From a virus, in the IMG/VR virus record IMGVR_UViG_3300005613_000011, positions 1-64,000 of that record: a stretch of DNA of 64,000 nucleotides, one strand, 5' to 3'. The number at the start of each line of letters is the position of its first letter. Position 1 is the stretch's first letter. A model generated the notes under the pieces. That model was not told where the DNA came from. It did not search any database and worked only from the letters and a program-made list of their open reading frames with translations. The translations under genes were made by a program, and so were the position numbers. Shown piece by piece: positions 5,274 through 44,662 of the stretch.

Positions 5274-6380
5274 ATGGCACTTAAAGGTCAAATCGTAAGC
5301 GAAGAAACTAAACAAAAGAAAAAAGAAACACAGAAAAAACGACTAATGGAAAAATATGACTGGACCCTTATAGAACCGTACCAGGACGTTGAACTAAAAA
5401 TGTCTTCACGAGGAAGGCAAAAAAAATATATTACATTAAAACAATTTAAACAAAAACTAGAAGGAGACATGTATATACAGGACTTTCAAAAAGAAACATC
5501 TAAAGCTTTAGTTGGTTTCTTTAGTGCTTTTTGTCAAGGTAAAATTAAATTAGAGAAACAAACGTTTATAGATGAATACGAAAAAGGAAAAAGTTTAGTT
5601 GAAATAGCAGAAAAATATAATATTCCAAAAGACTATATTGGATTTCTAAGACAATTATTTGAGATTAAATCCAAAGGAGCGACTTTTCGACATAGAAAAT
5701 TAACAGAAGTACCATTGACACAAAGACAAAGAGAAATTATATATGGATCTATGATGGGTGATGCAAAGAAGTTTGCTCCTGCTTCTGTTGGTTTTGGGCA
5801 TGGACCAAAACAAAAATCATACTTAGAGTGGAAATATGAGGAGTTAAGACCTTTAGCGACAGAACAAGGGATTAAAGAATATTCGTCATATGATAAAAGA
5901 AGTGGTAATTTGAGTTTTTCGTACAGATTTTATACCTATTCGAATACAGAACTAGAAGAAATTAATAAACTGTTTTATTCGGGTCTAGAACAAAAAAAAG
6001 AAGTATCAACTAAAATATTATCTAATTTAACTCCTCTTTCTATCGCCGTATGGTTTATGGATGATGGCAAGACAGACTGGAATCATCGATCTTTGAAAAA
6101 AAGACCAAATAGGGCAACAGAAACTCACTTTCTTTGTGCTGATTCTTTTTCTTTTGATTCTTGCGAAAATATAAAAGGGTGGTTTTTTAAGAGATATAAT
6201 ATAAAATGCAGAATGAAATCTAATGGTTTTCGTAAAAGAAGCACTATTATAAAATATAGAATAGTTATTGAGCATGAATCAAATGAAAATTTCATTAATT
6301 TAATTCGTCCTTATATTTTACCTTTATTTTATTATAAGACCAATTATCAAGCATACCTAAAATGGAGAAGAAATGATTAG
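5274..6380 (+). CDS. Free-standing LAGLIDADG homing endonuclease with NUMOD3-like N-terminus
   Basis: Two LAGLIDADG helices, QREIIYGSMMGDA and LTPLSIAVWFMDDG; N-terminal GQIVSEETKQK. Confidence 0.9.
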   Translation: MALKGQIVSEETKQKKKETQKKRLMEKYDWTLIEPYQDVELKMSSRGRQKKYITLKQFKQKLEGDMYIQDFQKETSKALVGFFSAFCQGKIKLEKQTFIDEYEKGKSLVEIAEKYNIPKDYIGFLRQLFEIKSKGATFRHRKLTEVPLTQRQREIIYGSMMGDAKKFAPASVGFGHGPKQKSYLEWKYEELRPLATEQGIKEYSSYDKRSGNLSFSYRFYTYSNTELEEINKLFYSGLEQKKEVSTKILSNLTPLSIAVWFMDDGKTDWNHRSLKKRPNRATETHFLCADSFSFDSCENIKGWFFKRYNIKCRMKSNGFRKRSTIIKYRIVIEHESNENFINLIRPYILPLFYYKTNYQAYLKWRRND

Positions 6381-6789: not shown

Positions 6790-7122
6790 TTGTTGCATAA
6801 GTCTATAACTACCACATATTGGAGACTTGTTATGAGTATATATAAAATTAAGTTAAAGGATCTAGACAACAAGGATATTGGGGAAAATGAAGTTATACAA
6901 AAATTAATAAATGGCAATTCAAATTCGTCTAATACAAACAATATACCACTGAAATATCTCGCCAAATACTTTAAACCAGCAGCAGCAAAATTGGACACTA
7001 TAAAACCAATAATAAGGCAAATTAGTTCTATCCAAAATTTTGATTCTAAAGAAATTGATTTTATGTTGCCAGATTTACCTGAACATAAAGAAGATAAGTT
7101 TTTTTTCAAAAAAAAACCTTAA
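6790..7122 (+). CDS. Hypothetical protein (start probably MSIYK at 6832)
   Basis: ORF track; GGAG precedes the ATG at 6832. Confidence 0.55.
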   Translation: MLHKSITTTYWRLVMSIYKIKLKDLDNKDIGENEVIQKLINGNSNSSNTNNIPLKYLAKYFKPAAAKLDTIKPIIRQISSIQNFDSKEIDFMLPDLPEHKEDKFFFKKKP

Positions 7123-7250
7123 AAACAATTATAATAGGAAGTATATCAGGTATTATATCCGCTGTAATTGCTTTTATATTAATTGATACTTTCTTTAACT
7201 AATGATTTTCACAATAGGCAAAACCAATAATTGCAAATGTGGAGAAATAA

Positions 7251-8543: not shown

Positions 8544-9817
8544 GTCAATTACCCCTCCCACAAGGGGAGGGGCTTGTTCAGCCGGATAAACTGGGAACAA
8601 TAGGCTGATTGACAACAGCCCTATCTGGATAGCCTGTAGCGTCCAGATATTTGAGACAAATATTACGACTAGCATTGAGGTCAGCATTAAGTTGAAAACC
8701 ACATTTCTTACAACTAAACAGAGATTGACAAACCCTGTTTGCTCTCTTAATATGACCGCATCTGCTACATCTCTGACTAGTATACCTTGCATCAACATAA
8801 ACAATATTAATGCCTTTGGATTCAGCTTTGTACTTAATTATCCACTCCAACTGGAAGAAGTTCCAACGATTAACTTCTTTACGTTGGGCTTTTCTCCAAT
8901 TGTTAGTACGCTTACGAATACCAGTCAAATCTTCAAACACCAAAGTGTCTCCGCTTTGAAGTTTGCTAACAATCTGCTTAGAGATGCAATGATTGGCATC
9001 TTTCCTAAACCGTCTCTCCTTACCTCTAACTTTGGTAAGGTGTCTTTTAGCAGACCTTGTTTTCTTAGATTGAAGTTGACTTCTCAATCGTTGATATCTA
9101 TCAGAAACTTGTTTAACTTTTCCACCACCAAAGAATCTATTGTCAGAGGTTACAGCAAGTTTTTTAACTCCTCTATCACAGCCAACAAGATTCCCAGTTG
9201 GTTCTATGTCAGAAACTTCTTTTTCAAAAACAACATGGAGAAAAACTCTTCCTTTGCTATCAATAAGCAAATTAGCAGAAGTGTGTTTCCAATCCAAATA
9301 ACGTTCAAAGTACTCAGGAATATTAAGGCTAAACTTCTTTCTACCATCAATAGTAAGAATAGAAACTTTTCTACTTTCAAGCCAAAGTGTATAGGAGTTC
9401 TTATCAAGCCTGACACTACATTGTTTGGATTGAGGGCAAGAAATATGTTGTTTCTTCTTTCTAAGTGCTTTAACAGATTTAAGGGATTCAGTAGCTTTCA
9501 TTCTAGCAGATATAGCCAGTTGAGAAGGCAGGTATTGTCTTGTTGTTTGATAGGTTTTGTGGTGAAGAGACACACCATTAATATCGAATGGATTAAAACC
9601 TATTTGACAGACAAAATTGTAAGCTTTTGTATAGGCTTCAATAGTTGGTTTGATATCTTGTGTTGAGATATCAAGTCTAAGTTTAGCTGTCCGAATGAGT
9701 TTCATATATTACTATTATCGGATAGTTCTAAAGATTCCTTTAATAATTTTTTCAAATAGGAGAAAGTAGCAATTCCTCCTCTACCGCAAGGGTAGAGGTT
9801 TCCTTGCTACAAAGATT
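8544..9817 (-). mobile_element. IS200/IS605-family (IS1341-type, tnpB-only) element; TAM TTCAT
   Basis: Left-end hairpin CCTCTACC..GGTAGAGG near 9777-9798; right-end hairpin CCCCTCCC..GGGAGGGG ending TTGAC on minus. Ends are confirmed by the second copy at 26889-27090. Confidence 0.9.
8578..9705 (-). CDS. tnpB: RNA-guided endonuclease TnpB
   Basis: RuvC motifs VGCDRG, VFEDL and NADLNAS intact; Zn ribbon CSRC..CKKC. Confidence 0.95.
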   Translation of the reverse strand: MKLIRTAKLRLDISTQDIKPTIEAYTKAYNFVCQIGFNPFDINGVSLHHKTYQTTRQYLPSQLAISARMKATESLKSVKALRKKKQHISCPQSKQCSVRLDKNSYTLWLESRKVSILTIDGRKKFSLNIPEYFERYLDWKHTSANLLIDSKGRVFLHVVFEKEVSDIEPTGNLVGCDRGVKKLAVTSDNRFFGGGKVKQVSDRYQRLRSQLQSKKTRSAKRHLTKVRGKERRFRKDANHCISKQIVSKLQSGDTLVFEDLTGIRKRTNNWRKAQRKEVNRWNFFQLEWIIKYKAESKGINIVYVDARYTSQRCSRCGHIKRANRVCQSLFSCKKCGFQLNADLNASRNICLKYLDATGYPDRAVVNQPIVPSLSG

Positions 9818-10352: not shown

Positions 10353-10379
10353 TAAGGTATACTATAAGGTATACTATAA
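10353..10379 (+). repeat. Tandem 12-bp repeat TAAGGTATACTA x2 immediately upstream of the microprotein array (TATACT -10-like)
   Basis: Directly visible. Confidence 0.7.
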
Positions 10380-10381
10380 AG

Positions 10382-10434
10382 ATGAAAATACTACAGAAAT
10401 AAACTGTTCTGGTTCTAGGTCTTTGTCTAGGTAA
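10382..10434 (+). pseudogene. Ser-X microprotein array unit 1, frameshifted/short
   Basis: MKILQK* then TCTGGTTCTAGGTCTTTGTCTAGG-TAA and the same TAACAAAATG junction. Confidence 0.6.
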
Positions 10435-10438
10435 CAAA

Positions 10439-10651
10439 ATGAAAATAATACAAAAAACAATATGTGTGAGCAAGTCTTGGTCTAGTTCTTGGTCTACGTC
10501 TAGTTTTAGTTCTAGTTCTGGTTTTTGGTCTAGATCTTGGTCTTTGTCTTGGTTTAGTTCTAGTTCTACGTCTAGTTCTAGTTCTTGGCCTTATTCTTGG
10601 TCTTTTTCTTTGTCTTTTTCTAGTTCTTTGCCTAGTTCTAGGTTTAGGTGA
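10439..10651 (+). CDS. Ser-X microprotein, unit 2
   Basis: MKIIQKTI leader plus TCT-NNN core; 70 aa. Confidence 0.7.
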   Translation: MKIIQKTICVSKSWSSSWSTSSFSSSSGFWSRSWSLSWFSSSSTSSSSSWPYSWSFSLSFSSSLPSSRFR

Positions 10652-10655
10652 TAAA

Positions 10656-10838
10656 ATGAAAATGATACAAAAAATAATAAGAATAAATAGGTCTAATTCT
10701 AGGTCTTGGTCTACGTTTAGGTCTTGGTCTAAATCTAGTTCTTTTTCTTGGTCTTTGTCTTGGTCTTTGTCTTTGTCTTATTCTACGTCTAGTTCTTGGT
10801 CTTTGTCTACGTCTAGTTCTAGGGCTTGGTCTAGGTAA
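10656..10838 (+). CDS. Ser-X microprotein, unit 3
   Basis: MKMIQKIIRINRS leader; GGTGA SD overlaps the previous stop. Confidence 0.7.
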   Translation: MKMIQKIIRINRSNSRSWSTFRSWSKSSSFSWSLSWSLSLSYSTSSSWSLSTSSSRAWSR

Positions 10839-10844
10839 CAAATT

Positions 10845-11027
10845 ATGAAAATGATACAAAAAATAATAAGAACAAATAGGTCTTATTTTTACTCTTGGTC
10901 TAGTTCTTGGTCTAGTTCTTGGTCTAGTTCTTGGTCTAGTTCTTGGTCTAGTTCTTGGTCTAGTTCTTATTCTAGTTCTTTGTCTTATTCTAGGGCTTGG
11001 TCTACGTCTACGTCTTGGTCTTGGTAA
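10845..11027 (+). CDS. Ser-X microprotein, unit 4
   Basis: MKMIQKIIRTNRS leader; (SWSS)x6 core; ends TSWSW. Confidence 0.7.
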   Translation: MKMIQKIIRTNRSYFYSWSSSWSSSWSSSWSSSWSSSWSSSYSSSLSYSRAWSTSTSWSW

Positions 11028-11031
11028 CAAA

Positions 11032-11190
11032 ATGAAAATGATACAAAAAATAATATGCGCGAGGAAATCTAGTTCTTTGTCTTGGTCTAGTTCTTTGTCT
11101 TTGTCTAGTTCTTTGTCTTGGCCTTATTCTAGGTCTTATTCTTGGTCTAATTCTTGGTCTTTTTCTTGGTTCAGTTCTAGGTTTTGGTGA
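11032..11190 (+). CDS. Ser-X microprotein, unit 5 (52 aa, missing from ORF track)
   Basis: MKMIQKIICARKSSSLSWSSSLSLSSSLSWPYSRSYSWSNSWSFSWFSSRFW, translated by hand. Confidence 0.7.
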   Translation: MKMIQKIICARKSSSLSWSSSLSLSSSLSWPYSRSYSWSNSWSFSWFSSRFW

Positions 11191-11194
11191 CAAA

Positions 11195-11416
11195 ATGAAA
11201 ATGATACAAAAAATAATAAGAACAAATAGATCTTGGTCTTGGTCTTGGTCTTGGTCTAGGTCTTGGTCTAGTTCTAGTTCTCGTTCTTGGTCTACGTCTT
11301 GGTCTAGGGCTAATTCTGGGTCTTCTAGTTCTTATTCTTGGTCTTGGTTTTTGTCTACGTCTTTTTCTAGTTCTTGGTCTTGGGCTTGGTCTAGTTCTAC
11401 GTCTTGGTCTTGGTAA
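11195..11416 (+). CDS. Ser-X microprotein, unit 6
   Basis: MKMIQKIIRTNRSWSWSWSWSRSW...TSWSW. Confidence 0.7.
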   Translation: MKMIQKIIRTNRSWSWSWSWSRSWSSSSSRSWSTSWSRANSGSSSSYSWSWFLSTSFSSSWSWAWSSSTSWSW

Positions 11417-11420
11417 CAAA

Positions 11421-11642
11421 ATGAAAATAATACAAAAAATAATAAGAATGAACACTAAAGAAGATTTGCAAATTGAATTAGACTTTTTTGTTAAGAAAAT
11501 CAGGGAAACAGGTTTTGATATTCGTGTCAGTTGGACTGACGAATACAGTAAAATGCAGAGCGTGTTTGGACATGTTAATTCCCACGTAGAAAAAAGATAC
11601 AAGTTTAAACTAGACGAAGAAGAAACCGATACAATAGATTAA
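11421..11642 (+). CDS. Hypothetical protein carrying the array leader fused to an ordinary domain (unit 7)
   Basis: MKIIQKIIR fused in frame to MNTKEDLQIELD... Confidence 0.7.
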   Translation: MKIIQKIIRMNTKEDLQIELDFFVKKIRETGFDIRVSWTDEYSKMQSVFGHVNSHVEKRYKFKLDEEETDTID

Positions 11643-21413: not shown

Positions 21414-22840
21414 ATGAACTACCCAAGTTAAAGCACTGGGGTTTCCTGACTCTTTCTTCTATTACTAGAAGTTTTTTGATAAAAACTTACTCTAATATAT
21501 TTTGATTCTAACGAATCAAATATACTAGTAGCAGAGGTTTTCATCTCCTCAAGCTTAAATTCCCTGCGTTCCACAGGTACATATTTATTTAATCCTTCAG
21601 TTTCTATACATCTAGCAGATTTTAAATCTCTATCTTCTTTAAATCCACAACTACAAGAATAAACTCTTTGACTTAAAGGAATTTTATTTTTCTTGTTACA
21701 ACTAGGACAAAGTTGAGTAGAAGGAAAGAATTTATCTACTAATATAGGTGTATGAGATTTGTTTTTCAAGTCTCTAATTATCCTACCTATACTAGTATTT
21801 TGAATTTTCTTTCCATGATTACTACTCTTCCAACTATGTATGGATTCATCTTGAAAGATTATATTCTTATAATTATTTACTAATTTAGAAACAATCTTGT
21901 TTCTAATATTATTTTTAATATTAGTGAGTCTAATATATTCTCTTTGTCGTTTGATTTGATCTTTCAACTTGTTATTAGATCGTCTTCTGTTTTTCTTCAT
22001 TATCTTTCTATCTAAACGTTTGAGGCGTTTAGATATTGGTACTTCGTATCTTATTTTAGTTCCATTAGAAAGAGTTAGTTGTGTTTCACAACCGAAGTCT
22101 ATTCCTATTGATTCTCCAATAAATTGTTTATCTTCTTTCTCTTGATAAGTAGTGATGTGTATGAAAAAGTCATTAGCTTTTTTAATTAAAGTGGCATTTG
22201 CTATTTCACAATCTTTAGGTATTTGTTGTAGGCCGTAAACTTTAATAGCTCTTTTTATTCCTTGAATCTTTATACTGTTAGAAACCTTAATGATTTTATA
22301 GGTCTTATTATATTGTTTAAGAGGAATAGAACTTAGTTGTGAGATAAACTTTAGTTTACCTACTCGTTGACCTTTCTTCTTCTTTTCTGAAAGAGATAAG
22401 ATATTGAAGTATAGTCTTTCTCTTATCCCTTGTTTCATCTGTGAAGAGATCTTATCTAATCTTCTTATTTTATAATGATCTTTTACTTTTACAGGTACTT
22501 CTTTTAATTTAGTATTATACTCGAAAGGATCGTTTTCTAGTATATCATTGTATAACCATTTACCTTGTATAAATAATGAGTTAAGATGATTGAGAGTAGA
22601 GATAGAAAGTTTAGACTTATCAATTTTAGTTTGATAAACTTTACAAGTTTGAGACTTATGTCTTTTTGTAGTTTCTAGTCGTTTTGTATATCTTCTACTC
22701 ATTACTATTCTATTATTATATAATAATAGAACTGATTCCTTTAAAAAAGTGAATAAAATATTTATATAAATTTTTAAAAAGAAATTATTATTTTGATTTA
22801 TCTTTACGATAAATAATTAAGGTTTTCTTAAAACGTTTCA
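21414..22840 (-). mobile_element. Second tnpB-only IS200/IS605-superfamily element; probable TAM TTTAC
   Basis: Right end GGAAACCCCAG..TTGGGTAGTTCAT; boundaries inferred from restoring the host gene; GTTTCA at both junctions makes them ambiguous by up to 6 bp. Confidence 0.75.
21428..22702 (-). CDS. tnpB: RNA-guided endonuclease TnpB (second, unrelated subtype)
   Basis: IGIDFG, IFQDE, PSTQLCPSC..CSCG and DRDLKSA motifs. Confidence 0.93.
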   Translation of the reverse strand: MSRRYTKRLETTKRHKSQTCKVYQTKIDKSKLSISTLNHLNSLFIQGKWLYNDILENDPFEYNTKLKEVPVKVKDHYKIRRLDKISSQMKQGIRERLYFNILSLSEKKKKGQRVGKLKFISQLSSIPLKQYNKTYKIIKVSNSIKIQGIKRAIKVYGLQQIPKDCEIANATLIKKANDFFIHITTYQEKEDKQFIGESIGIDFGCETQLTLSNGTKIRYEVPISKRLKRLDRKIMKKNRRRSNNKLKDQIKRQREYIRLTNIKNNIRNKIVSKLVNNYKNIIFQDESIHSWKSSNHGKKIQNTSIGRIIRDLKNKSHTPILVDKFFPSTQLCPSCNKKNKIPLSQRVYSCSCGFKEDRDLKSARCIETEGLNKYVPVERREFKLEEMKTSATSIFDSLESKYIRVSFYQKTSSNRRKSQETPVL

Positions 22841-28030: not shown

Positions 28031-29107
28031 ATGAATGAAAATATTAAAAAAGATAAAATAGTTTCAGTTGACTGTGGCACTATGTTTTTCCAAACAGCTA
28101 CAAGAGGTGAAGGGGATAAACTAGTAATTAAAACAACAAGAAATGCGTTTGTAGAAGTTGCTGACATAGACGATATCGAAGAGACCTTGAAACAAAACGG
28201 TTGGCAATATGTAAAAGACGGTGAGCACTATTATGTAATTGGTGAAGATTCTTTAAGAGTGGCCAAGATGTTCCCAGGACAAGTTGAACTTCGAAGACCT
28301 ATGCAAGAAGGTGTCTTGAATAAAGATGAAGATAAAAAGATGCTTGTCATGGCAGAAATTATTGAGTCCTCGATAGGAAAGGCAACGGGTAAAGACGATG
28401 TTGTTTGTACTTGTATATCATCAGAAGCGGTAGATGATTCTACAACCAGCACGTTTCACAAGGCGAGACTTGAGGCCATGTTTTCAAGGCTTGGATATAA
28501 TGTGGTTATTATAGAGGAGGGTTTGGCTGTAGTTTTTGCGGAGAACCCAAAAGTTACCGAGAAAGACGGTAAAACTTTCAATTTTTCAGGATGTGGGATT
28601 AGCTGGGGAGCCGGAAAAATTAACTGTGTGTTAGCATATAAAGGCATGCCTGTTATAGGGCTTAGTTCTAAGAATTCTGGTGACTGGATTGATAAGACGG
28701 TTTCAAGCGAAACTGGAAAACCTCTTTCACAAGTAACTTCTTTAAAGGAAAACGAGTTAGACTTAACGAAAGATAATTATGATGATGAAGTTTTGTTTGC
28801 CTTGACAGCCTGTTACAGGGCGATGATAACTAATGTAATAAAGAAGTTTGCAAAGAAATTTATGGAAGTTAAGAGCGAGTTTGATGCACCTATTAATTTT
28901 GTTGTGGCAGGCGGTACAAGTATGCCTAAAGGATTTTGCAAGATTTTTGAAGAAGTAGTAAAAGGAATAGAGATTCCGTTCGAAATAGGAACTGTAACGA
29001 GATCTCCCGATCCTAGAAATTCGGTAGTAAAAGGTTGTTTGAGAAGGGCCATTATTGCTCACAAGAGGATTAAGGGAGGTATTCCTGACAAAGAAAGTAG
29101 TGAGTAA
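28031..29107 (+). CDS. Actin-like ATPase (MreB/ParM/MamK superfamily)
   Basis: Phosphate-1 VSVDCGT, connect-1 IEEGLAV, phosphate-2 GISWGAGKIN, adenosine VVAGGTS and connect-2 PRNSVVKG. Confidence 0.88.
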   Translation: MNENIKKDKIVSVDCGTMFFQTATRGEGDKLVIKTTRNAFVEVADIDDIEETLKQNGWQYVKDGEHYYVIGEDSLRVAKMFPGQVELRRPMQEGVLNKDEDKKMLVMAEIIESSIGKATGKDDVVCTCISSEAVDDSTTSTFHKARLEAMFSRLGYNVVIIEEGLAVVFAENPKVTEKDGKTFNFSGCGISWGAGKINCVLAYKGMPVIGLSSKNSGDWIDKTVSSETGKPLSQVTSLKENELDLTKDNYDDEVLFALTACYRAMITNVIKKFAKKFMEVKSEFDAPINFVVAGGTSMPKGFCKIFEEVVKGIEIPFEIGTVTRSPDPRNSVVKGCLRRAIIAHKRIKGGIPDKESSE

Positions 29108-36847: not shown

Positions 36848-39800
36848 ATGGCAGATTTCGATCCGACAATCAAGAAGGTTCTTCATCCCTCTGCTCATGG
36901 TGCTCGTAGATGCTGTTTAGAAACTGAAGGTAATGCATATAAGGAAGGCGAAGTCGAACCGTGGGGCGTTATACCTTTATCTGCAAAAGCTAAGGGCATA
37001 CGTTATTCTTTCTCTATTACGCCTGTAGTTAATCACAGCGATACTATTCCATATCAAAAAAGACTTGATACAACCTCTTCAAGTGAATCGTCTGAAGATG
37101 GTGGTATTTGGCCTTCTGATGTCCCTACCATACAAACAACTAATGGGTCAAGAGGATACGGTGTAGTTCCTGGTAGTTTTAGTAATGCATTTTTGCCAGC
37201 AATAACATACGAAGAAGAGGGGTCTGGAGTAACTTATACAAAGTTTGACGATCATACCGATGGAGGAGAAATATATAGTATAAGAATGTGGACAACTGAT
37301 GTTGGAGATACTTATATATCAGAGAATAAAAGAAACGAACTAACGGGGGTAGAGTCACCAGCACAAAGATATAAAATTAATTCAGAAGGTAGTCGTGAAT
37401 ATAATTGGGAGGAAAGACCGAGAGACGAAAATAAGACTACATCATATTCTGACGTATATAAAGAACAACCTAACAATATCAGGTGGTGGTTTGGGTTAGA
37501 TGGTATTGAGCCTAACAGTGGTGATAATATACTGTGGGGCGAAGTAGTACAAGGATGTCGTGATTTAGAAGAAGAGATAAATGGAGATGAATTAGAAGAC
37601 GCTACTACCGATCTTTTAATCCAGATCATTGCATCTCCCGATGTTTCTGCTGACGATATTTCAGAAGCTAACACTGAACTAGGCGATAATTTTGAAGAGA
37701 GAAAAGCGGCTATTGACAGATACATGGAGGTTATTGATAATTCTGAGTCTACACTAAAATCAACTGAAACTGTTACTGAATCTACTCCTGCGATTGGAGG
37801 TGTTGATTATTCCAGAGTTGGAATAGCGACTGTGGCCGAACAAGTCGCTACATCATTAGAAAGCTGTTTGAATATTCCCAATGCAATTATTGACAATGAT
37901 ACACAAACGACTGTAAACAATTTTATAAGGAGTATCAGAAATAAAGCCAGCAGTCTTAAAAATTCCAGAATAAAAAATAAAAAGATTTCCATTAAGCAAG
38001 ACAAGAATATTGATGGATTTTTTGTATCATATATAAACGATCATGATTATATTGCTAAAAACGCAGACGAAGACGAAGAATGTGAAGAAACTTTTGATTG
38101 GGGTTTCCGTCATCCGGTTCCTAAAGTCTTTTATGGAGACTCCGACATAGACGATTGTCCTAGACTGCAAATATCCGAGAAGAATACGAAAGGAGGCGTT
38201 CCTGTAGTTGATGAGGGTGTTGAATTGCCCCCTCAAAGGGATTTTTATTCTAAAGATGGGGAAGCAATAGAGATTTATTCTAAAGATGTTCTGGGGAACG
38301 ATTTTCAATCATATGATTTTTTGGAAGGGACCGAATATACAAGTGGTACATGGAAGATAAGAAATTGTCATTTTAAACCTAATAGTGAGAATAAAGGGCT
38401 TGTCGTAACCGAGTGGATTAAAACTACAAAAGAAGGAGATGAGCAAAAACAAGAGACTTATAGGGAAACCACTCTTATTAATAACAATACTGGAGGGGAA
38501 TCTAGAACATTTTATACGTATATAGGGAAAGACGGGAAATCTCAAAACAGTTGGCCTAAAGGAATGACTGTTTCTGACGAAGAATTTGTGGACAAAACGG
38601 CTGATGCGAAGTTCGTAATACAATTAATAAAAAGAAGAAGAGGAATTGGTTCTAGTAGTTCGTCTAGTAGCTCCAGCTCTAGTATTAGTTCTTCTAGCAG
38701 TTCGTCTATTAGTTCTTCTAGCAGTTCGTCTATTAGTTCTTCTAGCAGTTCGTCTATTAGTTCTTCTAGCAGTTCGTCTAGTATTTCTTCTAGCAGTTCG
38801 TCTAGTATTTCTTCTAGCAGTTCGTCTATTATTTCTTCTAGCAGTTCGTCTATTATTTCTTCTAGCAGTTCGTCTATTATTTCTTCTAGCAGTTCGTCTA
38901 TTAGTTCTTCTAGCAGTTCGTCTATTAGTTCTTCTAGTAGTTCGTCTAGTATTTCTTCTAGTAGTTCGTCTATTAGTTCGTCTAGCAGTTCTTCTAGCAG
39001 TTCGTCTATTAGTTCTTCTAGCAGTTCTTCTAGCAGTTTGTCTAGTAGTTCTGCTAGTTCTATGAGTTCTTCTATGAGTTCTTCTATGAGTTCTTCTAGT
39101 TCAGCTAGTCCTCCTACGTTTATTCTTGCTGCGAATAATCCTTTTTTAAGAAAAAAGATATTACATATCGATCCTTGTGATGAAAACCTTCTTATTTTCC
39201 ATACAGAAGTAACCAATCCTTACGATAAAGATTGGTTTAAGAAGTGTATTTATGGTAGAGGAAATATCTTAGATAATGATACTATTTCCAAGATGTTACT
39301 ATTAGATATCAAGGCGATAGATTGTGAAGATGCTGATGATATAAGTTTTGAAAGAGGAAAAGACGATTGTCCTTGTCCTTGTGTTACTGACAATCATGAA
39401 CAAACGGATTGGGTTTTGGATTTATATGTTTATATTGAGTCAGGAAAATATAAGTTGTTGTTTTTCAGGGGTGTTTATGAATATGACGGGATGGAAGACG
39501 TTCCCCTCGTAGAATCTGTTGTTTTTGATGATAATCTTGTTACTGAGGAAATGGCTGGTCAAGCATATGATTTTGGGGATGATTTAGAATATTTAGAAGA
39601 CGCATGTTGGGGCTACAGGTTTTTGGACGATACTTCTAAAATTTTATCGAGCGGCCATTCTGGGACATGCACACTATATCCTTGTCTTGAAAATTTTGAA
39701 GGACTAAACGTAACTAAATTTAAGGAATCTCTCAATAATGACAATCGGGACCATAATGCATTATTTGAAGATAAAAAAAATTATGCTTATTACTATTCTA

Positions 39801-42800
39801 ATGAACAAGATATTTATTATGAAAAAGAGGGGAGCTATATACGGTCAATACATAATGATTATGCAGCGAATTACCACAAAGGCGGTGCGGCTTATAATTT
39901 GTTCACTCCTCACCTGACAACGCATAACACTATGTCCTTTATCTTCTCTGAAGAACAAACAGTTAAACATTATCCGTTTACATTGACCGAAGACACTAAG
40001 AAAGTCGCTGGAGGTTTTGTCGCTAATCTAAATACTATTTACCCGGCCAACATAGAGAGAGTTGCGTTAAATCCAAGACCACCAGTAGGGAAAAAAGACG
40101 AAGCCAATATATATAAAGACACGTACAAAACAGGTCACTTTGACAGTTACTGTGCAGATTATAACGCTAACGAAAACCCTAACAAGAGGAATGGTTCGGG
40201 CATAAGCAAATATTTGTATTACAAATTTAATTATGACGAAGATGCTGTAAAGGAACTTCTAAGGAAAGATGGAGAAGATCCGCGACCAGATCCTATTAAT
40301 GAATTTAAAGGGAGTAACGATCTGACTACGAGTAAAATTCTTCTTAGTAGGGCTTTAAAAAAAGATGACACTATATATATTACTGGTAGAATTGTTAAAA
40401 AGAGGCATTTTAGACAAATAGTTCAACTCCATACCAGATGTACTAATGACAGATTGAGAATGTACAAGTTTTATGATTGGGACTCTCTAGATAACGGAGA
40501 TGAAGGATATGATTTATATAACTGTTTGAAGCCTAAGTCTGTTGTGGAAGCATTTAATTTCACAGTTTGTTGTCACGATTACAAAGACTCTGACGGTAAT
40601 ATCGAGTGGGAGGAACAGTGGAGGATATCCGAACTTTTGACAAACGCCCGCTTAATACACAGGAGATGGCTGAGGCAGCATATAGGAGACGATCCTTTAT
40701 TGAAGAAACCTATTTCTTCCGGCACTTACTATCAGCAAGGGAAAAGTGAGGATATTTGTTGGGCAGCAGACACGCAGGGGATTATTAAACTAACGTTGAA
40801 TTTTGACGGTACATTTTCGTCTACTGTTGTTTTATCTAGAAATAAAATAAAAGATTCAAAATGGTTCCAAGCATATTTGACATCACAGAATTTAGACAAG
40901 ATAAAACTCGAAGACAAGCTGAATGTTGCGATCAAGACGCTTGTCACATCGAGCACATCTGATAAGGATAGGGATTATTTTACTGATATTTTTACGAGTG
41001 GTATGCTGTTTGATATCAGCGATCATGTTAATAAAAACATAAAAGATTATGAAAAACTTCCTTACATAAGATCTTTTGCCTTGGCAATAGGACTATTACA
41101 CGATGGAGCGGAAGTTGGTGTAACGAACCTTGATCTTACGAACAAGTCAGGCTTATCAGCTAGCGTGACTCTTGATTTGTCTACTGCTCATTTTGTTCCT
41201 AGCGGGACTAGTGCTACGTTAAGGAATTCTCCCACGAATGCTGCTATCGCTGGCAGTATCGCAACTGTTCCTGAAAACGAGTCAAGCGTTGAAAAAGCAG
41301 CAAGAGAGAAGAAAGAGTCTGATATTGAGAACGCTTCTGACAGGTATGATTTTCAAAGTTATCAGTCGTATATGAGTGGCTATTTTAGAAATGCTTATGT
41401 GGATTCTATTTCTTCTGACATGGAACAGGAGATGTATAACAAGATGACAGGGACAGAAGATTGGTCTACAACGTTTGGAGCAGATCCTCCATGGTCTTCT
41501 ACTGTAACAGGAGGCAATAGTTTTTTTGGAGGTGCAGATATTCCTCCTGGCAATCATTCTATATCTGGATCTGATGAAGTTATGTATAGAGCAGTTCCTC
41601 CTTGTAGTGGTTCCAGAACTAAAGAATACACTACAATTAGACATTTAAGCGGTAGTATGTATGTCGTGGGAGGAGGGGATCATACTCTTACGATGACATC
41701 TTCTAGTGTTAAACCTTTAATAGTTGGCAATACTTTGCAGGATAATTTTACAGGTATTAAGTGGACTACTGTAAGCAATACAATCTTTTTGCCTAGATCT
41801 TCCAATTTCAGGATATATGTTGAGAGTTTTGCTATAGAAAGGGATTTCGGTCCTAACCAGGACGAGTTTGAATATGGGACAGACGGTGGGGCAGACAACG
41901 ATTCCGAAATGTTGGAATGTTGTAATGTCAGAACTTGGCTTGCTCTTGAAAATTTAAACGTGGAAATTTTATCTCCTTCACCACCATACGATATAGAGGG
42001 TGCCGGTATATATGTGGCGGAATGGCCTTATACGGATGCTATTATTTTAACTTCTCCCGATTTTGTATATAATAGTGTCAGGTATCACTATATCACGGAT
42101 AAGGAGTACCCGTCTTGGGAGACAACAGGAGTAACAAACGATGAAGCAATAAAAATATGGGAAGAGGCGATTACGGACGAATGGAAGGCGAATGAACGAG
42201 AAATAAATACTGTTCCTTTAGAATATTGGGCAATTCATTTTGAAGGAAATATTATAAATTCAGCGTGTCCTGACGTAGAGGTTTCGCAAGCATCATTCTT
42301 TGACCCGGACGATATTGTATCTGTAGAGAGTTCTACAAGTACTTCTACAAGTACTTCTACAAGTACTTCTACAAGTACTTCTACAAGTACTTCAGCAGGC
42401 GAGAAGTTTGATGTTGATAAATATGGGGTTGACACTATTAGAACAGATCAAATAGTAGGAGAAAGTTTTGCATATAAAAGAGGAAGATCTATTTGTTTTG
42501 ACAGTGGTAAGATCCAAAGATATAATTCTAGTGCTATAACATATATGGATATACCAATTATTTTTCAACTGTCATCTCGCAAAGCAGAGTTTTTATTGAA
42601 GAGCAGCAATAGTGTATTGCAGGCTAATACTGATGTGTGCGGAGATTATCCGTATGTTTATATGAAATCTTTGAATCTTAAATTTTCTCTTACTGATGCT
42701 ACTCAGTCCACGGTTATTACTTTATGTACTTTAGGACAAGGAAAAAACAGGATTTTAACTATTGTAGATGTTATAGAACTAAAGAACTATAACGGACAGA

Positions 42801-44662
42801 TTAACATAGATGCCAGGTATGCAGAGTTTGGTAAAATAATGATAATCTCTGACAATCTTCACAATTTAAATATAACGTCCGCGACAGCAAAATGTTTGTC
42901 GGAAATTAATTTTTATAGATATAAAGCATATAATTCTAATGCGTTCCAGACCGTTAAGGTGGATGGAAATACAATTATAGCAGACGATATAAAACTTGTT
43001 TGTGATAAGTTAGCAAACACCGCTGTTCAATATGATACTAAGTCGATTGTTATATATAATGATTTCTGGCCATTTGATCCTTATAAACCGAAATCTGAAT
43101 CTGCTAAAGATGGGGTAGTAACCTTTAGGTTGGCTTATGGTGCATCTGTTGTTGATGCGAAGGCAAGGTTATTTGTATTTTTCCCTGATGCCAGAAGAAA
43201 CATTTCCGCCGCAATGTCTCTTGATGGTGGTTTAACATGGTACTTGTTTGATGGGTTGATTAGACTTTTACAAAGAGAATCTGCCAGAGCACCGTTTGTT
43301 ATTTACAATAAGCGTAATGATTTAATCAGCTTGTTTTTCTTGTATGAGGAGAGATCTGGTAGTGGAGACTTGCTTGCTGTAAAACATATACCAGCATCGT
43401 TATTTAACGCTACTGATGCTTTTACCCCTTATTATCCTCCAGAAACAACCACTGGATTCGATACGGATTTGGATCATTTTAGTGGTAACGGCAAGTCTCT
43501 AAGATGTTTATTCTCGACTATTATTGAAGGTAATGTGTCCGATTCGAGTTCTGTGTATTGTTTGCAAACCAGAGAAAATGAGGAGAACCAAGGGGGGTGG
43601 GGATGGAGCAAAACTGCTTATGCTTCGCTGTCTAGAGGTTGGAACTATTACGAAGAACAACTCAAAGAAGAATATGCCACACTGCCGGAGGATATAAGCA
43701 AAGAAACGAGTTATTTCCCAAGATTCAAATTAGGAAACAGGAAACTAGAAACGAATCTCCAAAATATCAGGTTTGCTGCTTATCATGATCTAAAGGGAGT
43801 GTTAAGACTTATTGGGGTCAGCGATACTTTCGCTTCCGAATCTGAATCTCAATCTGGTGGTAGTCCTGTTATCCAAAAGGCAAATAGCACTATGTTTATA
43901 AGAAGTTGTAGAGACTATATAAACTGGGAAGAAAATATTAGCGAAATAAATTTCCACAAGAAAAAGGAATCTTATGATGTGGGAGACCCTAATTATGAAA
44001 CCGCTTATAGCTCCGAGACATTTAAAAAGTGGTACTTAATGAATGCATTTTTATGTTATGCGACAAATAAGTGGACTAGCGTCAAGGATTGCATACAGGT
44101 CTCGTCAGAAGTTTATGCTTTTTCTGATGTTGTTTGTGATGAATCGTCTCAAGGGAAATCCAATATTGTTGACATAAAAAAGGAAAACACATCTGATTTT
44201 TGTTTCGGTGACAGTAGAGCGGAAACCGATTTGGGGCCGATTGAAGTTGTTTCTAACCCGTTGACTGGAGATGTTGCTGTTTTCTTTTCTTATCAAGATA
44301 ACCTGTTTGTTAGAAGGTTGATAAACAATTTTATAGATTATTATTCGGAAGAAAATAGAGGAAAATTAAGTGCAAATAAAGAAAAGACAATAGGTGAGAC
44401 GTTTAATTTAACCAAAGACTCGCCGAATAAACCTGTATATATAGCCGGTAAAACACCAAAGAGCGTAGATACTGATTACTATACTGTTACAACCAGAGCG
44501 TCTTCAAACGCACCTAATTCTGGTGTTTTAGGTGGCCTTAAACCTGGATCCTATTTTACAAGAAAGGGATTATTAAGAGTGTTTTATTTCGACGAGTTAG
44601 CAAATATCTGGGGAGTGACTTTATCCCTGCCTGAATTCGGTATTGTTCTGGAGGAATCTTAA
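36848..44662 (+). CDS. Giant tail/baseplate-associated protein (2604 aa) with poly-Ser and Ser-Thr linkers
   Basis: Position after TMP; Asp-box-like SLDGGLTW near the C-terminus. Confidence 0.8.
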   Translation: MADFDPTIKKVLHPSAHGARRCCLETEGNAYKEGEVEPWGVIPLSAKAKGIRYSFSITPVVNHSDTIPYQKRLDTTSSSESSEDGGIWPSDVPTIQTTNGSRGYGVVPGSFSNAFLPAITYEEEGSGVTYTKFDDHTDGGEIYSIRMWTTDVGDTYISENKRNELTGVESPAQRYKINSEGSREYNWEERPRDENKTTSYSDVYKEQPNNIRWWFGLDGIEPNSGDNILWGEVVQGCRDLEEEINGDELEDATTDLLIQIIASPDVSADDISEANTELGDNFEERKAAIDRYMEVIDNSESTLKSTETVTESTPAIGGVDYSRVGIATVAEQVATSLESCLNIPNAIIDNDTQTTVNNFIRSIRNKASSLKNSRIKNKKISIKQDKNIDGFFVSYINDHDYIAKNADEDEECEETFDWGFRHPVPKVFYGDSDIDDCPRLQISEKNTKGGVPVVDEGVELPPQRDFYSKDGEAIEIYSKDVLGNDFQSYDFLEGTEYTSGTWKIRNCHFKPNSENKGLVVTEWIKTTKEGDEQKQETYRETTLINNNTGGESRTFYTYIGKDGKSQNSWPKGMTVSDEEFVDKTADAKFVIQLIKRRRGIGSSSSSSSSSSSISSSSSSSISSSSSSSISSSSSSSISSSSSSSSISSSSSSSISSSSSSIISSSSSSIISSSSSSIISSSSSSISSSSSSSISSSSSSSSISSSSSSISSSSSSSSSSSISSSSSSSSSLSSSSASSMSSSMSSSMSSSSSASPPTFILAANNPFLRKKILHIDPCDENLLIFHTEVTNPYDKDWFKKCIYGRGNILDNDTISKMLLLDIKAIDCEDADDISFERGKDDCPCPCVTDNHEQTDWVLDLYVYIESGKYKLLFFRGVYEYDGMEDVPLVESVVFDDNLVTEEMAGQAYDFGDDLEYLEDACWGYRFLDDTSKILSSGHSGTCTLYPCLENFEGLNVTKFKESLNNDNRDHNALFEDKKNYAYYYSNEQDIYYEKEGSYIRSIHNDYAANYHKGGAAYNLFTPHLTTHNTMSFIFSEEQTVKHYPFTLTEDTKKVAGGFVANLNTIYPANIERVALNPRPPVGKKDEANIYKDTYKTGHFDSYCADYNANENPNKRNGSGISKYLYYKFNYDEDAVKELLRKDGEDPRPDPINEFKGSNDLTTSKILLSRALKKDDTIYITGRIVKKRHFRQIVQLHTRCTNDRLRMYKFYDWDSLDNGDEGYDLYNCLKPKSVVEAFNFTVCCHDYKDSDGNIEWEEQWRISELLTNARLIHRRWLRQHIGDDPLLKKPISSGTYYQQGKSEDICWAADTQGIIKLTLNFDGTFSSTVVLSRNKIKDSKWFQAYLTSQNLDKIKLEDKLNVAIKTLVTSSTSDKDRDYFTDIFTSGMLFDISDHVNKNIKDYEKLPYIRSFALAIGLLHDGAEVGVTNLDLTNKSGLSASVTLDLSTAHFVPSGTSATLRNSPTNAAIAGSIATVPENESSVEKAAREKKESDIENASDRYDFQSYQSYMSGYFRNAYVDSISSDMEQEMYNKMTGTEDWSTTFGADPPWSSTVTGGNSFFGGADIPPGNHSISGSDEVMYRAVPPCSGSRTKEYTTIRHLSGSMYVVGGGDHTLTMTSSSVKPLIVGNTLQDNFTGIKWTTVSNTIFLPRSSNFRIYVESFAIERDFGPNQDEFEYGTDGGADNDSEMLECCNVRTWLALENLNVEILSPSPPYDIEGAGIYVAEWPYTDAIILTSPDFVYNSVRYHYITDKEYPSWETTGVTNDEAIKIWEEAITDEWKANEREINTVPLEYWAIHFEGNIINSACPDVEVSQASFFDPDDIVSVESSTSTSTSTSTSTSTSTSTSTSAGEKFDVDKYGVDTIRTDQIVGESFAYKRGRSICFDSGKIQRYNSSAITYMDIPIIFQLSSRKAEFLLKSSNSVLQANTDVCGDYPYVYMKSLNLKFSLTDATQSTVITLCTLGQGKNRILTIVDVIELKNYNGQINIDARYAEFGKIMIISDNLHNLNITSATAKCLSEINFYRYKAYNSNAFQTVKVDGNTIIADDIKLVCDKLANTAVQYDTKSIVIYNDFWPFDPYKPKSESAKDGVVTFRLAYGASVVDAKARLFVFFPDARRNISAAMSLDGGLTWYLFDGLIRLLQRESARAPFVIYNKRNDLISLFFLYEERSGSGDLLAVKHIPASLFNATDAFTPYYPPETTTGFDTDLDHFSGNGKSLRCLFSTIIEGNVSDSSSVYCLQTRENEENQGGWGWSKTAYASLSRGWNYYEEQLKEEYATLPEDISKETSYFPRFKLGNRKLETNLQNIRFAAYHDLKGVLRLIGVSDTFASESESQSGGSPVIQKANSTMFIRSCRDYINWEENISEINFHKKKESYDVGDPNYETAYSSETFKKWYLMNAFLCYATNKWTSVKDCIQVSSEVYAFSDVVCDESSQGKSNIVDIKKENTSDFCFGDSRAETDLGPIEVVSNPLTGDVAVFFSYQDNLFVRRLINNFIDYYSEENRGKLSANKEKTIGETFNLTKDSPNKPVYIAGKTPKSVDTDYYTVTTRASSNAPNSGVLGGLKPGSYFTRKGLLRVFYFDELANIWGVTLSLPEFGIVLEES
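38651..39103 (+). repeat. Coding minisatellite (TCTAGCAGTTCGTCTATTAGTTCT-like units) encoding ~150 aa of poly-Ser
   Basis: Directly visible. Confidence 0.95.
42329..42394 (+). repeat. 12-bp tandem repeat (TCTACAAGTACT)x5 encoding a Ser-Thr linker
   Basis: Directly visible. Confidence 0.95.

Follow-up and report, generated by a model that had tools for sequence, protein, structure and literature searches.

Low-complexity regions are known from the RS domains of SR proteins and from RGG/RG sequences, such as the tails of SmD1, SmD3, SmB, and LSm4. We have analysed an array of small serine-rich genes in a stretch of 64,000 nucleotides (hereafter the window; positions 1 to 64,000 of IMG/VR virus record IMGVR_UViG_3300005613_000011), whose predicted products, in which Ser is followed by a variable residue X, resemble such regions in that Ser alternates with a sticky or cationic residue, in that they would be disordered, and in that their relatives are associated with an Sm-fold protein. 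On the other hand, the window peptides are free-standing, 50-70 aa in length, dominated by Trp, poor in Arg, and placed outside any kinase or methyltransferase context. The dense alternation of Arg with Ser or Gly that is typical of SR/RGG regions was found in many relatives of the array but not in the window (13 Arg and 2 Gly among 127 X residues).

Prochlorosin-type RiPP arrays combine a constant leader with a hypervariable core. The window array shares with them its tandem paralogues, in which an N-terminal leader is conserved and the rest is hypervariable, and differs from them in its 12-residue leader, in its repeat cores, and in the lack of a co-located maturase. In Gram-positive bacteria, the Ser-rich repeat glycoproteins GspB and Fap1 are huge adhesins that bear a special signal peptide, are anchored to the wall by LPXTG, and come with an accessory Sec system. 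The Ser-X dipeptide repeats, together with GT4 glycosyltransferases encoded in the same phage record, recall these adhesins. On the contrary, the window ORFs stop right after the repeat, their 12-aa leader is non-hydrophobic, the GT4 genes are located at 110-113 kb, 97 kb off, and neither a signal peptide, nor an LPXTG motif, nor adjacent Sec/Gtf genes were found. In T4-type phages, PeSL-type cassettes are mobile regulatory elements flanking hypervariable small ORFs. As in these cassettes, a short conserved piece starts many unrelated small genes in plastic regions, and by this analogy it is plausible that the conserved leader piece serves as a recombination linker. The conserved piece of the window is, however, largely coding (the leader), promoter-like sites numbered 8 vs 7.2 expected, and no terminator-like hairpin was found at the junctions. 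Hexanucleotide repeats also give rise to dipeptide-repeat proteins, namely poly-GR/PR from C9orf72 and the VR/GL proteins encoded by TERRA (PMC9992779). In the window, too, a hexanucleotide is read as a dipeptide and several frames are open, but its genes are ATG-initiated, bounded, leader-bearing, and evolutionarily maintained, unlike pathological ATG-free expansions.

The array also has much in common with a module formed by Ser-(Trp/Arg/Gly) repeats and an Sm-like gene: a short basic leader, a period-2 Ser encoded by one dominant hexamer, richness in Trp, no acidic residues, tandem coupled units with a stop only at the array end, and an Sm-fold gene in the nearest relative contig (L008). 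It departs from this module in that X is mostly Trp, Ser, Leu, Thr, Tyr, or Phe, encoded by TCT-WNK rather than NGG-type hexamers, in that no Sm-like gene was found in the 113-kb record, and in that its leader is also borne by non-repeat proteins. An initial annotation had proposed the array as an undescribed system. We found no published description of a phage family of Ser-X repeat microproteins in the literature, but the array is not a one-off: judging by its sequence, it belongs to the phage Ser-X dipeptide-repeat microproteins, a very large family within which it is diverged and AT-rich.

Anatomy of the array

Reading of the sequence and of the ORF list resolved the array into one decayed unit, five intact ORFs, and the ORF of unit 7, preceded by a short direct repeat:

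10353..10379, + strand: 12-nt direct repeat (TAAGGTATACTA, 2.2 copies) just 5′ of the decayed unit 1, from the tandem repeat finder and the sequence
10383..10434, + strand: unit 1, decayed, with an MKILQK remnant, a stop, five out-of-frame TCT-phase hexamers, and a GGTAA junction, from the sequence and the ORF list
10439..10651, + strand: unit 2, predicted 70-aa Ser-X microprotein with leader subtype MKIIQKTICVSK and 29 hexamers
10656..10838, + strand: unit 3, predicted 60-aa Ser-X microprotein with leader MKMIQKIIRINR and 24 hexamers
10845..11027, + strand: unit 4, predicted 60-aa Ser-X microprotein with leader MKMIQKIIRTNR and 24 hexamers, including a (TCTTGG TCTAGT)x6 run
11032..11190, + strand: unit 5, predicted 52-aa Ser-X microprotein with leader MKMIQKIICARK and 20 hexamers
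11195..11416, + strand: unit 6, predicted 73-aa Ser-X microprotein with leader MKMIQKIIRTNR, 30 hexamers, and 14 Trp
11421..11642, + strand: unit 7, an ordinary acidic protein that begins with an in-frame copy of the leader (MKIIQKIIR), 73 aa in total

The 24-nt leader ATGAAAATRATACAAAAAAYAATA was found in six copies on the + strand, at positions 10439, 10656, 10845, 11032, 11195, and 11421, vs 0 expected from 100 shuffles, and had no further copy elsewhere in the 113-kb record. The five intact ORFs (52-73 aa) carry the leader MKMIQKII... followed by 20-30 TCT-NNN hexamers. The Ser-X array annotated at 10353-11642 is real by both the leader count and the intact ORFs. Of the seven head-to-tail units proposed for it, five (units 2-6) are intact Ser-X units, whereas unit 1 is a remnant and unit 7 is a leader on an ordinary acidic protein. 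Nor does a unit begin at 10353, since positions 10353-10379 belong to the separate 12-nt direct repeat. This repeat is a possible candidate for a promoter or initiation region; a promoter scan revealed no enrichment above shuffles. It has to be noted that the window is a short-read contig, in which mis-assembly affecting the number of units is conceivable.

Each unit starts with ATG and stops directly at the end of the hexamer run. The junctions read GGTAACAAAATG (three times), GGTGATAAAATG, GGTGACAAAATG, and GGTAACAAATTATG, with a spacing of 4 or 6 nt between a stop and the next ATG. The ORFs had been described as translationally coupled; they are closely packed and their coupling is probable. 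The SD-like element is weak, consisting of GGT only, where other genes of the same phage use GGAG. Two leader subtypes were distinguished, ...IIR(T/I)NR in units 3, 4, and 6 (with unit 7 being similar) and ...IC(V/A)(S/R)K in units 2 and 5. The genes downstream of the array are on the same strand.

Composition and diversification of the cores

The Ser position of units 2-6 is occupied by TCT in about nine out of ten hexamers, and the 14 variants observed at this position in the window are all TTT, CCT, or GCT, none of them synonymous. The 127 X residues comprise 39 Ser, 35 Trp, 13 Arg, 12 Leu, 8 Thr, 8 Tyr, 5 Phe, 3 Asn, and 2 Gly, with TGG (35), AGT (26), TTG (12), AGG (11), ACG (8), TAT (7), TTT (5), and AAT (3) as codons, and only about half of them are hydrophobic. 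The third base of X is G in 67 cases and T in 57, i.e., GG is not kept. The absence of acidic residues from units 2-6 was confirmed (0 Asp/Glu), along with 5-9 Lys+Arg in each unit and pI values of 10.3-12.0. As for the Ser-X register, also stated to be kept, the reading frame is preserved throughout, although unit 6 has one internal register shift of 3 nt.

Core identity between units was 0.675, in comparison with 0.661 ± 0.006 for hexamer-shuffled cores; the order of hexamers between units is effectively randomised. Indels with respect to the nearest relative are multiples of 6. Together, these data agree with the proposal that the cores are diversified at the hexamer level and are consistent with slippage and unequal recombination.

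A diverged lineage of a large phage family

Most relatives of the array use the hexamers TCN-NGG or AGC-NGG, read as Ser-Trp/Arg/Gly, whereas the hexamer of the MKMI-leader lineage to which the window belongs is TCT-WNK, read as Ser-Trp/Ser/Leu/Arg/Thr/Tyr/Phe. The family is defined operationally by ORFs of about 40-110 aa in which a short basic leader precedes a core with Ser as every other residue, and the window units agree with this form (52-73 aa, a 12-aa leader, and 20-30 pairs), as they do in having one dominant Ser codon at a 6-nt period and a terminal stop with no internal in-frame stop. The family trait of an X drawn almost solely from the NGG box (Trp, Arg, Gly) is not seen in the window array, where Trp, Ser, Leu, Thr, Tyr, and Phe largely replace Arg and Gly; MKMI-leader contigs grade from the Trp/Arg/Gly composition to the window-like one. 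About 45 independent metagenome contigs contained this lineage, whose arrays reach 9 units.

The best match to the array was L008 (83.6% over 317 nt), the most similar stretch being the 3′ half of unit 3 and its junction to unit 4. The L008 array recurs in identical form in a second assembly, L734, which rules out the assembly artefact that had been considered as an objection. In L008, the array is flanked by NAPRTase and NUDIX/NAD synthase and forms part of an NAD-salvage operon on the + strand, the junctions of which are overlapping or of 6 nt.

Searches of the array units with HMMER, Pfam, and PHROGs gave no match, and none of the 777 candidates sharing words with unit 3 in a word-indexed homology search passed; both outcomes result from the low complexity of the units. 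The phage record collection yielded only a chance match with a cyanophage virion gene, on the opposite strand, and the bacterial genomes scanned for prophage copies yielded one chance match, a simple repeat outside the family in a Desulfobacterales contig. In a generic GG-period-6 scan meant as an unbiased control, the matches were dominated by Gly-X repeats.

An Sm-fold gene adjoins the array in 64 of the 94 related locus-strands. The fold of this neighbour was predicted with a pLDDT of 86.8, and its top Foldseek matches were all Sm/LSm proteins. Within the MKMI lineage, L008/L775, L778, and L791 contain the Sm-fold gene at 0.5-1.4 kb from their arrays, and no Sm-like gene was detected with two neighbour-built profiles and Pfam LSM in the 113-kb record, which is estimated to be 20% complete. 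The predicted complex of the Sm-like protein of L008 with its Ser-X peptide scored 0.00 in a run without controls, and this score carries no weight on binding in either direction.

The leader heads proteins without repeats

The constant-leader, variable-body layout is real and broader than had been claimed, in that the leader also heads non-repeat small proteins in related metagenome contigs: 44 unrelated small ORFs begin with it, in L779 together with a repeated 5′ UTR. For the ordinary protein of unit 7, an exhaustive search retrieved a single small homologue, P0003 (61 aa, 46% identity, E 2.8e-4), which begins where Met10 of unit 7 aligns, i.e., without the leader; the same search also returned a repeat protein that is probably spurious, and the word-indexed homology search with unit 7 returned nothing. 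The AF2 model of unit 7, of low confidence, consisted of two helices and did not resemble an Sm barrel.

That the leader is fused to an ordinary protein and missing from the homologue of that protein, and that it is present on so many unrelated ORFs, fits the view that the array is a regulatory or evolutionary by-product. According to this view, slippage-prone upstream mini-ORFs tune or couple a downstream gene (unit 7 in the window, NUDIX in L008), junction and leader act as a recombination linker, and the peptides have no function. The effectively random order of the cores also speaks for it, as do the recurrence of the junction TAACAAAT-ATGAAAAT of the window array at the NUDIX start in L008 and the fact that the array matches many contigs while its flanks match nothing elsewhere. 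However, many phage lineages keep the family under the same rules (Ser register, Trp richness, no acidic residues), the leader is conserved at the peptide level, and the recurrent Sm-like neighbour is unexpected for junk. We consider it unlikely that the array is a by-product of this kind.

It is likewise improbable that the MKMI leader, of 9-13 residues, is a portable address tag, that is, one N-terminal handle through which a fast-evolving repertoire of small proteins is delivered to one partner or place, with the Ser-X cores acting as a sticky scaffold or cargo. In this lineage, the tagged repertoire would include peptides with Ser-X repeats or with complex cores as well as ordinary proteins, unit 7 among them, and the delivery target might be an Sm-like ring, a condensate, or the capsid. 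If true, the address tag would be the basis of a system by which the phage targets proteins, its cargo being hypervariable.

Evidence for translated genes

Part of the data would suit an element acting at the level of nucleic acid, i.e., a DNA or RNA repeat (e.g., a binding platform for an Sm-like ring protein, or a satellite) in which the ORFs are incidental or a mere carrier. Short RNA repeats are bound by Sm rings, the array is structurally open in several frames and on its reverse strand, and the Ser position makes near-exclusive use of the single codon TCT. The lack of synonymous Ser variants in the window and the near-restriction of X to NGG codons in relatives (synonymous GGA/CGA/AGA amount to a few percent at most) indicate that a constraint at the codon or nucleotide level, or a very recent homogenisation, is also acting.

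The distribution of stop codons argues against such an element. No in-frame stop was observed at X in the window vs 4.4 expected from position-wise base frequencies (P about 0.012). Across the family (237 DNA-defined arrays, 6055 hexamers), 27 were observed vs 146 expected, a depletion of about fivefold. Fifteen of these 27 stops are in one odd locus, and 10 of the 12 others are at the last hexamer. Frequent stops in homologous arrays had been named as an observation that would speak against the array; they were looked for, and stops proved to be depleted and nearly all terminal or confined to the odd locus. In the same 237 arrays, TAG was found 11 times at X (GAG 82, CAG 89, and AAG 64), even though T is the second-commonest first base of X and TGG its commonest codon. 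These data indicate that selection holds the Ser-X frame open in the family.

Further evidence against a role of the nucleic acid alone comes from the conservation of Ser while its codon changes between lineages, which use TCT, TCG, TCA, or AGC. Heterogeneous Trp+Arg/Gly arrays were found in 76 of 120 loci for TCG, 58 of 118 for TCA, 22 of 119 for TCT, and 6 of 120 for AGC, in comparison with 3 of 119 for the Thr (ACG) control. The window itself loses GG and keeps Ser, Trp, and the absence of acidic residues. Stop, SD, and start are each retained in three unrelated junction designs, namely GGTAACAAAATG in the window, TAG-GAGATAAGG-ATG in L052, and GGAGG...(A/G)TGA overlaps with ATG/GTG alternation in L013. 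In the leader, conservation applies to the peptide, the codons of conserved residues varying synonymously (Pro CCA 18/CCT 16, Ala GCT 25/GCA 15, Asn AAT 80/AAC 7, and Arg AGA/CGA/AGG/CGT). Only four register shifts were found across loci, three of them frame-preserving and one not, a number too small to carry weight. The signal for RNA structure was inconsistent (z −0.08 and −2.89), and Rfam gave no match. We regard a purely nucleic-acid element as quite unlikely; the + strand probably carries genuine micro-genes in a row, which are translated and form a diverged member of the Ser-X family.

Other readings of the locus

The initial annotation had likened the layout to RiPP precursors. In that reading, a maturase with its gene elsewhere would recognise the leader, and the cores, rich in Ser, would undergo dehydration, glycosylation, or cross-linking. 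Tandem paralogues with a leader and a variable, Ser-rich core are in line with this analogy, as are one radical SAM gene and three genes for GT4 glycosyltransferases in the same record (at 108-113 kb) and a trypsin-like peptidase gene 2.6 kb downstream, on the opposite strand. The analogy finds no support in the surroundings of the array: no RiPP-modifying enzyme was found with Pfam among 20 flanking proteins, including the ten nearest neighbours, and the reading is unsupported for lack of a maturase within 10 kb on either side. The sole radical SAM gene and the GT4 genes are 97 kb distant, and YcaO is absent from the record; the LanC search carries no information, as its control matched in no genome. 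What recurs beside the arrays of about 90 related loci is a protein of Sm fold rather than an enzyme, and the L008 array is located in an NAD-salvage operon. A leader of only about 12 residues and low-complexity cores of 40-60 residues also argue against RiPP precursors, which we consider very unlikely.

Coding on the reverse strand, as protamine-like (Pro/Thr/Gln)-Arg repeat proteins, is hardly credible: the strand is largely open, and ORFs of 128, 61, and 141 aa that resemble Pro/Arg-rich peptides cross the array, but they have TTG starts with no conserved start or SD, read the leaders as arbitrary sequence, are broken at each +1 junction, run antisense into unit 7, and oppose the strand shared by the Ser-X units, the array neighbours, and the Sm-like genes of relatives, while the openness of the reverse frame is an automatic outcome of TCT-NNN.

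Four further candidates were rejected. A primase-site array (GGTC every 6 nt) and a G-quadruplex were discarded because GG is not kept in the window, a diversity-generating retroelement (A-to-N changes at the first X base) because no reverse transcriptase was found in the proteins scanned, and an RNA structure formed by UCU-NGG pairing because it gave no consistent signal and nothing in Rfam.

Proposed mechanism and implications

Returning to the array as a row of translated micro-genes, we propose that the product of each gene would begin with a basic leader of 12 residues (M-K-M-I-x-K/R-...) and continue as a low-complexity core in which Ser alternates with other residues, and that in the MKMI lineage the hexamer may have drifted from TCN-NGG or AGC-NGG to TCT-WNK. 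The units would be expressed from a single early or accessory transcript through coupled or closely spaced re-initiation, and would arise and turn over by hexamer slippage and by unequal crossing-over at the conserved junction and leader. The resulting peptides may be disordered, sticky cationic-aromatic tails, with Trp, Tyr, Phe, and Arg as "stickers" and Ser as "spacers", which would bind RNA, an Sm-like partner, or one another, the leader serving as a constant handle. This functional step, in which sticky disordered tails bind RNA, the Sm-like partner, or each other, is the weakest part of the explanation and is put forward as a tentative possibility.

The window array adds to the family a drift from Trp/Arg/Gly toward a Trp/Ser/Leu/aromatic composition, arrays of as many as nine units within the MKMI lineage, and a leader shared with non-repeat proteins, and these three features make the idea of the leader as a handle directly testable. 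It also offers a clean natural example of hexamer slippage making protein variants of which selection keeps only frame, register, and charge. If the peptides are real, gene callers, Pfam, and PHROGs all miss a large class of dipeptide-repeat microproteins that evolves fast and is carried by many phage lineages. In eukaryotes, RNA binding and phase separation are driven by the very residues that make up the Ser-X peptides, which are often paired with an Sm-fold protein, and the existence of such peptides would point to an unexplored side of phage RNA handling or of the organisation of the infected cell.

Organization of the Ser-X array

The IMG/VR record has a length of 113 kb and an estimated completeness of 20%, with the window corresponding to its first 64 kb. 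It is identified as a phage by its tail-tube and Mu Gp36-like proteins, by structural ORFs of very large size, and by a pair of TnpB genes and a LAGLIDADG endonuclease. The tandem array of leader and Ser-X units described in the initial annotation was confirmed with small corrections:

10383-11642, + strand: seven-unit array, head-to-tail
Unit 1: remnant (MKILQK, a stop, then hexamers out of frame)
Units 2-6: ORFs of 70, 60, 60, 52 and 73 aa
Unit 7: leader joined to an ordinary, non-repeat acidic protein, 73 aa

The 24-nt leader block is present in 6 copies vs 0 expected and is absent from the rest of the record. The gap between a stop and the next ATG is 4 nt (6 nt once) and lies inside GGT(A/G)A(C/T)AAA(TT)ATG. 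The units show only GGT at the ribosome-binding position, whereas the other phage genes mostly have GGAG about 8-10 nt before ATG. The cores contain 127 hexamers, mostly TCT-NNN and read as Ser-X, with TCT at about nine in ten Ser positions and TGG (35), AGT (26), TTG (12), AGG (11), ACG (8), TAT (7), TTT (5) and AAT (3) among the X codons. As previously claimed, acidic residues are absent from units 2-6, which have 5-9 Lys plus Arg, 6-14 Trp and pI values of 10.3-12. The array is preceded by an AT-rich spacer of about 530 nt and then by a TnpB element on the opposite strand, which may have separated it from an older upstream neighbour. Other features of the record are:

5274-6380, + strand: free-standing LAGLIDADG homing endonuclease (Pfam E 8e-28)
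8578-9705, - strand: IS200/605-type TnpB (OrfB_IS605 + Cas12f-like TNB) directly 5′ of the array, with an inverted repeat resembling a terminal hairpin at 9778-9798
21428-22702, - strand: second TnpB (OrfB_IS605 + Cas12f-like TNB)
28031-29107, + strand: volactin-family actin-like protein (Pfam E 7e-63), an archaeal-type actin homologue within a phage, just 5′ of the tail-tube module
36848-44662: giant structural ORF (2604 aa) with tandem copies of a 24-nt unit (x17.6, 90% matches) at 38683-39099 and a perfect 12-nt repeat (x5.2) at 42331-42393
108-113 kb, far end of the record (L804 1968-7266): peptide deformylase, radical SAM, unknown protein and three GT4 glycosyltransferases

Comparative evidence for translation of the Ser-X frame

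In-frame stops at X numbered 0 in the window vs 4.4 expected from X base frequencies (P about 0.012), and the sole register break, a 3-nt shift in unit 6, leaves the frame intact. Variants at the Ser position are TTT, CCT and GCT; because synonymous Ser codons are lacking, protein- and nucleotide-level constraint are inseparable from the window alone. Heterogeneous arrays with Trp plus Arg/Gly were observed among the matches listed at 76 of 120 loci in a TCG-NGG scan, at 58 of 118 loci in the corresponding TCA-NGG matches listed, and at 6 of 120 in the AGC-NGG matches listed, as well as at 22 of 119 loci in the TCT scan, vs 3 of 119 in the Thr-codon (ACG) control. These data indicate that serine is retained while its codon varies, even across TCN/AGC. 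Thr-X repeat versions (ACG-NGG, Thr-Arg/Trp/Gly) do occur, at L539 (5200-5439, + strand; 48 hexamers) and L596.

Frequent stops in homologous arrays had been named as contrary evidence in the initial annotation; stops at X were instead depleted in 237 arrays defined on DNA only (6055 hexamers), with 27 observed vs 146 expected. Fifteen of these lie in a single odd locus (L206), and 10 of the remaining 12 are at the final hexamer. L206 (- strand) is an AGC-period array unlike all others, which is either defunct or translated in a different frame. Furthermore, three unrelated junction designs were found, with stop, ribosome-binding site and start kept in each: besides the junction of the window array, locus L013 has GGAGG or GGAAG ahead of an (A/G)TGA in which stop and start overlap, ATG alternating with GTG, and locus L052 has TAG-GAGATAAGG-ATG. 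Altogether, the change of Ser codon, the stop depletion and the three junction designs argue strongly, on comparative grounds, for translation of the Ser-X frame.

The L013 array (- strand) has 12 units in a GC-rich phage, and a 1-nt insertion breaks the Ser-X frame of one unit (7045-7185, reverse-complement coordinates), which is likely pseudogenised, like window unit 1. L052 (604-4114, + strand) holds an eight-unit array amid 7-deazaguanine pathway genes, with a PTPS/QueD-like gene upstream (Pfam E 7e-33) and a QueE-like gene, recognized by eye, between units.

Relatives and diversification of the array

Hexamer scans showed that this array type is very common among phage contigs. A leader scan of viral contigs revealed a second array, L008, with 83.6% identity to the window array over 317 nt. 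L008 is part of an operon for NAD salvage on the + strand, where it is flanked by NAPRTase and by NUDIX/NAD synthase and the junctions either overlap or measure 6 nt. Searching metagenomes for the leader with a TCT array behind it gave 72 loci, about 45 of them with MKMI-leader Ser-X ORFs and runs of up to nine units; L777 was the nearest to the window, and L734 was identical to L008. Matches to other contigs are limited to the array, the flanks of the window array being unmatched.

X composition across these MKMI-lineage contigs ranges from Trp/Arg/Gly to the Trp/Ser/Leu/aromatic mix of the window, which therefore represents one end of a continuum, reached by drift towards AT (AGG to AGT, TTG to TTT, etc.). 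The leader consensus is M-K-M-I-x-R/K-x-N-A/S-x-P/S-R/S-S, and the residues that it keeps are written with varying synonymous codons; conservation is thus at the peptide level. Other contigs also contain both window subtypes (..IIRTNR and ..ICVSK-like), which are therefore old.

Identity between cores of different units was 0.675 vs 0.661 ± 0.006 for hexamer-shuffled cores; hexamer order is therefore practically random, whereas the leaders scarcely differ over their first 24 nt. Differences between window and L008 include an 18-nt indel, equal to three hexamers. The proposed combinatorial diversification thus stands as regards scrambling with frame and register kept, and the pattern fits slippage plus unequal recombination, with selection on frame, Ser register and lack of acidic residues.

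Leader-headed proteins without Ser-X repeats

A single small protein, P0003 (61 aa, 46% identity, E 2.8e-4), is homologous to the body of unit 7. Since P0003 begins at Met10 of unit 7, the nine leader residues are an add-on. The structure model of unit 7 gave two helices at low confidence and no Sm barrel. The L008 NUDIX gene shares only the junction and first codons. In metagenome loci the MKMI leader heads 44 further small ORFs, often in tandem, with Ser/Arg/Trp-rich, non-Ser-X bodies that are mostly mutually unrelated. The constant-head/variable-body layout is thus real and extends beyond the repeat peptides. L779 (- strand, 783-2076), L769, L788 and L759 hold tandem ORFs of 45-78 aa with leader MK(M/I)I.R.NA.PMS and complex unrelated bodies; in L779, every small leader-headed ORF is preceded by a copy of a 5′ UTR repeat (about 35 nt).

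Possible role of the Ser-X peptides

In 64 of 94 array-bearing locus-strands, the array directly adjoins one of two related small proteins without Pfam or PHROGs match. A confident model (pLDDT 86.8), built on an alignment with the L008 protein as its first sequence, had only Sm/LSm proteins as top structural matches. Within the MKMI lineage, the Sm-like gene lies 0.5-1.4 kb from the arrays of L008/L775, L778 and L791. It was not found in the 113 kb of the source record (about 20% complete), and may be in the missing genome part or absent.

In these peptides, a basic head is followed by Trp/Tyr/Phe/Arg stickers set among Ser spacers. Such a make-up, together with the Sm-fold neighbour in relatives, resembles the RS/RGG tails of RNA-binding proteins and favours a tentative reading as disordered, sticky peptides that might bind RNA, a partner or one another, with the leader as a constant handle. 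The polar/non-polar alternation required for amphipathic strands is strict in only about half of the pairs.

The main rival explanation is that the array is a by-product or regulator, made of coupled upstream mini-ORFs and recombination linkers. The RiPP-like reading, in which the leader would be recognised by a maturase encoded elsewhere, fared poorly: the array has no RiPP-type enzyme in its vicinity, the record yielded no YcaO gene, and its radical SAM gene and GT4 glycosyltransferases (three) are far off, at 108-113 kb; the LanC search carries no weight, as its control matched in no genome. A role at the nucleic-acid level is disfavoured, as the strict NGG of relatives is lost in the window (third X base G 67/T 57); neither a consistent RNA structure nor an Rfam family was found. 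Reverse-strand Pro/Thr-Arg ORFs are very unlikely to be the coding ones, being without starts and interrupted at every junction, their openness a by-product of TCT-NNN.

No published description of Ser-X arrays was found in full-text literature, in agreement with the proposal of an undescribed system. What is new in the window is an Arg/Gly-poor composition, an array without a nearby Sm-like gene, and a leader common to non-repeat proteins.
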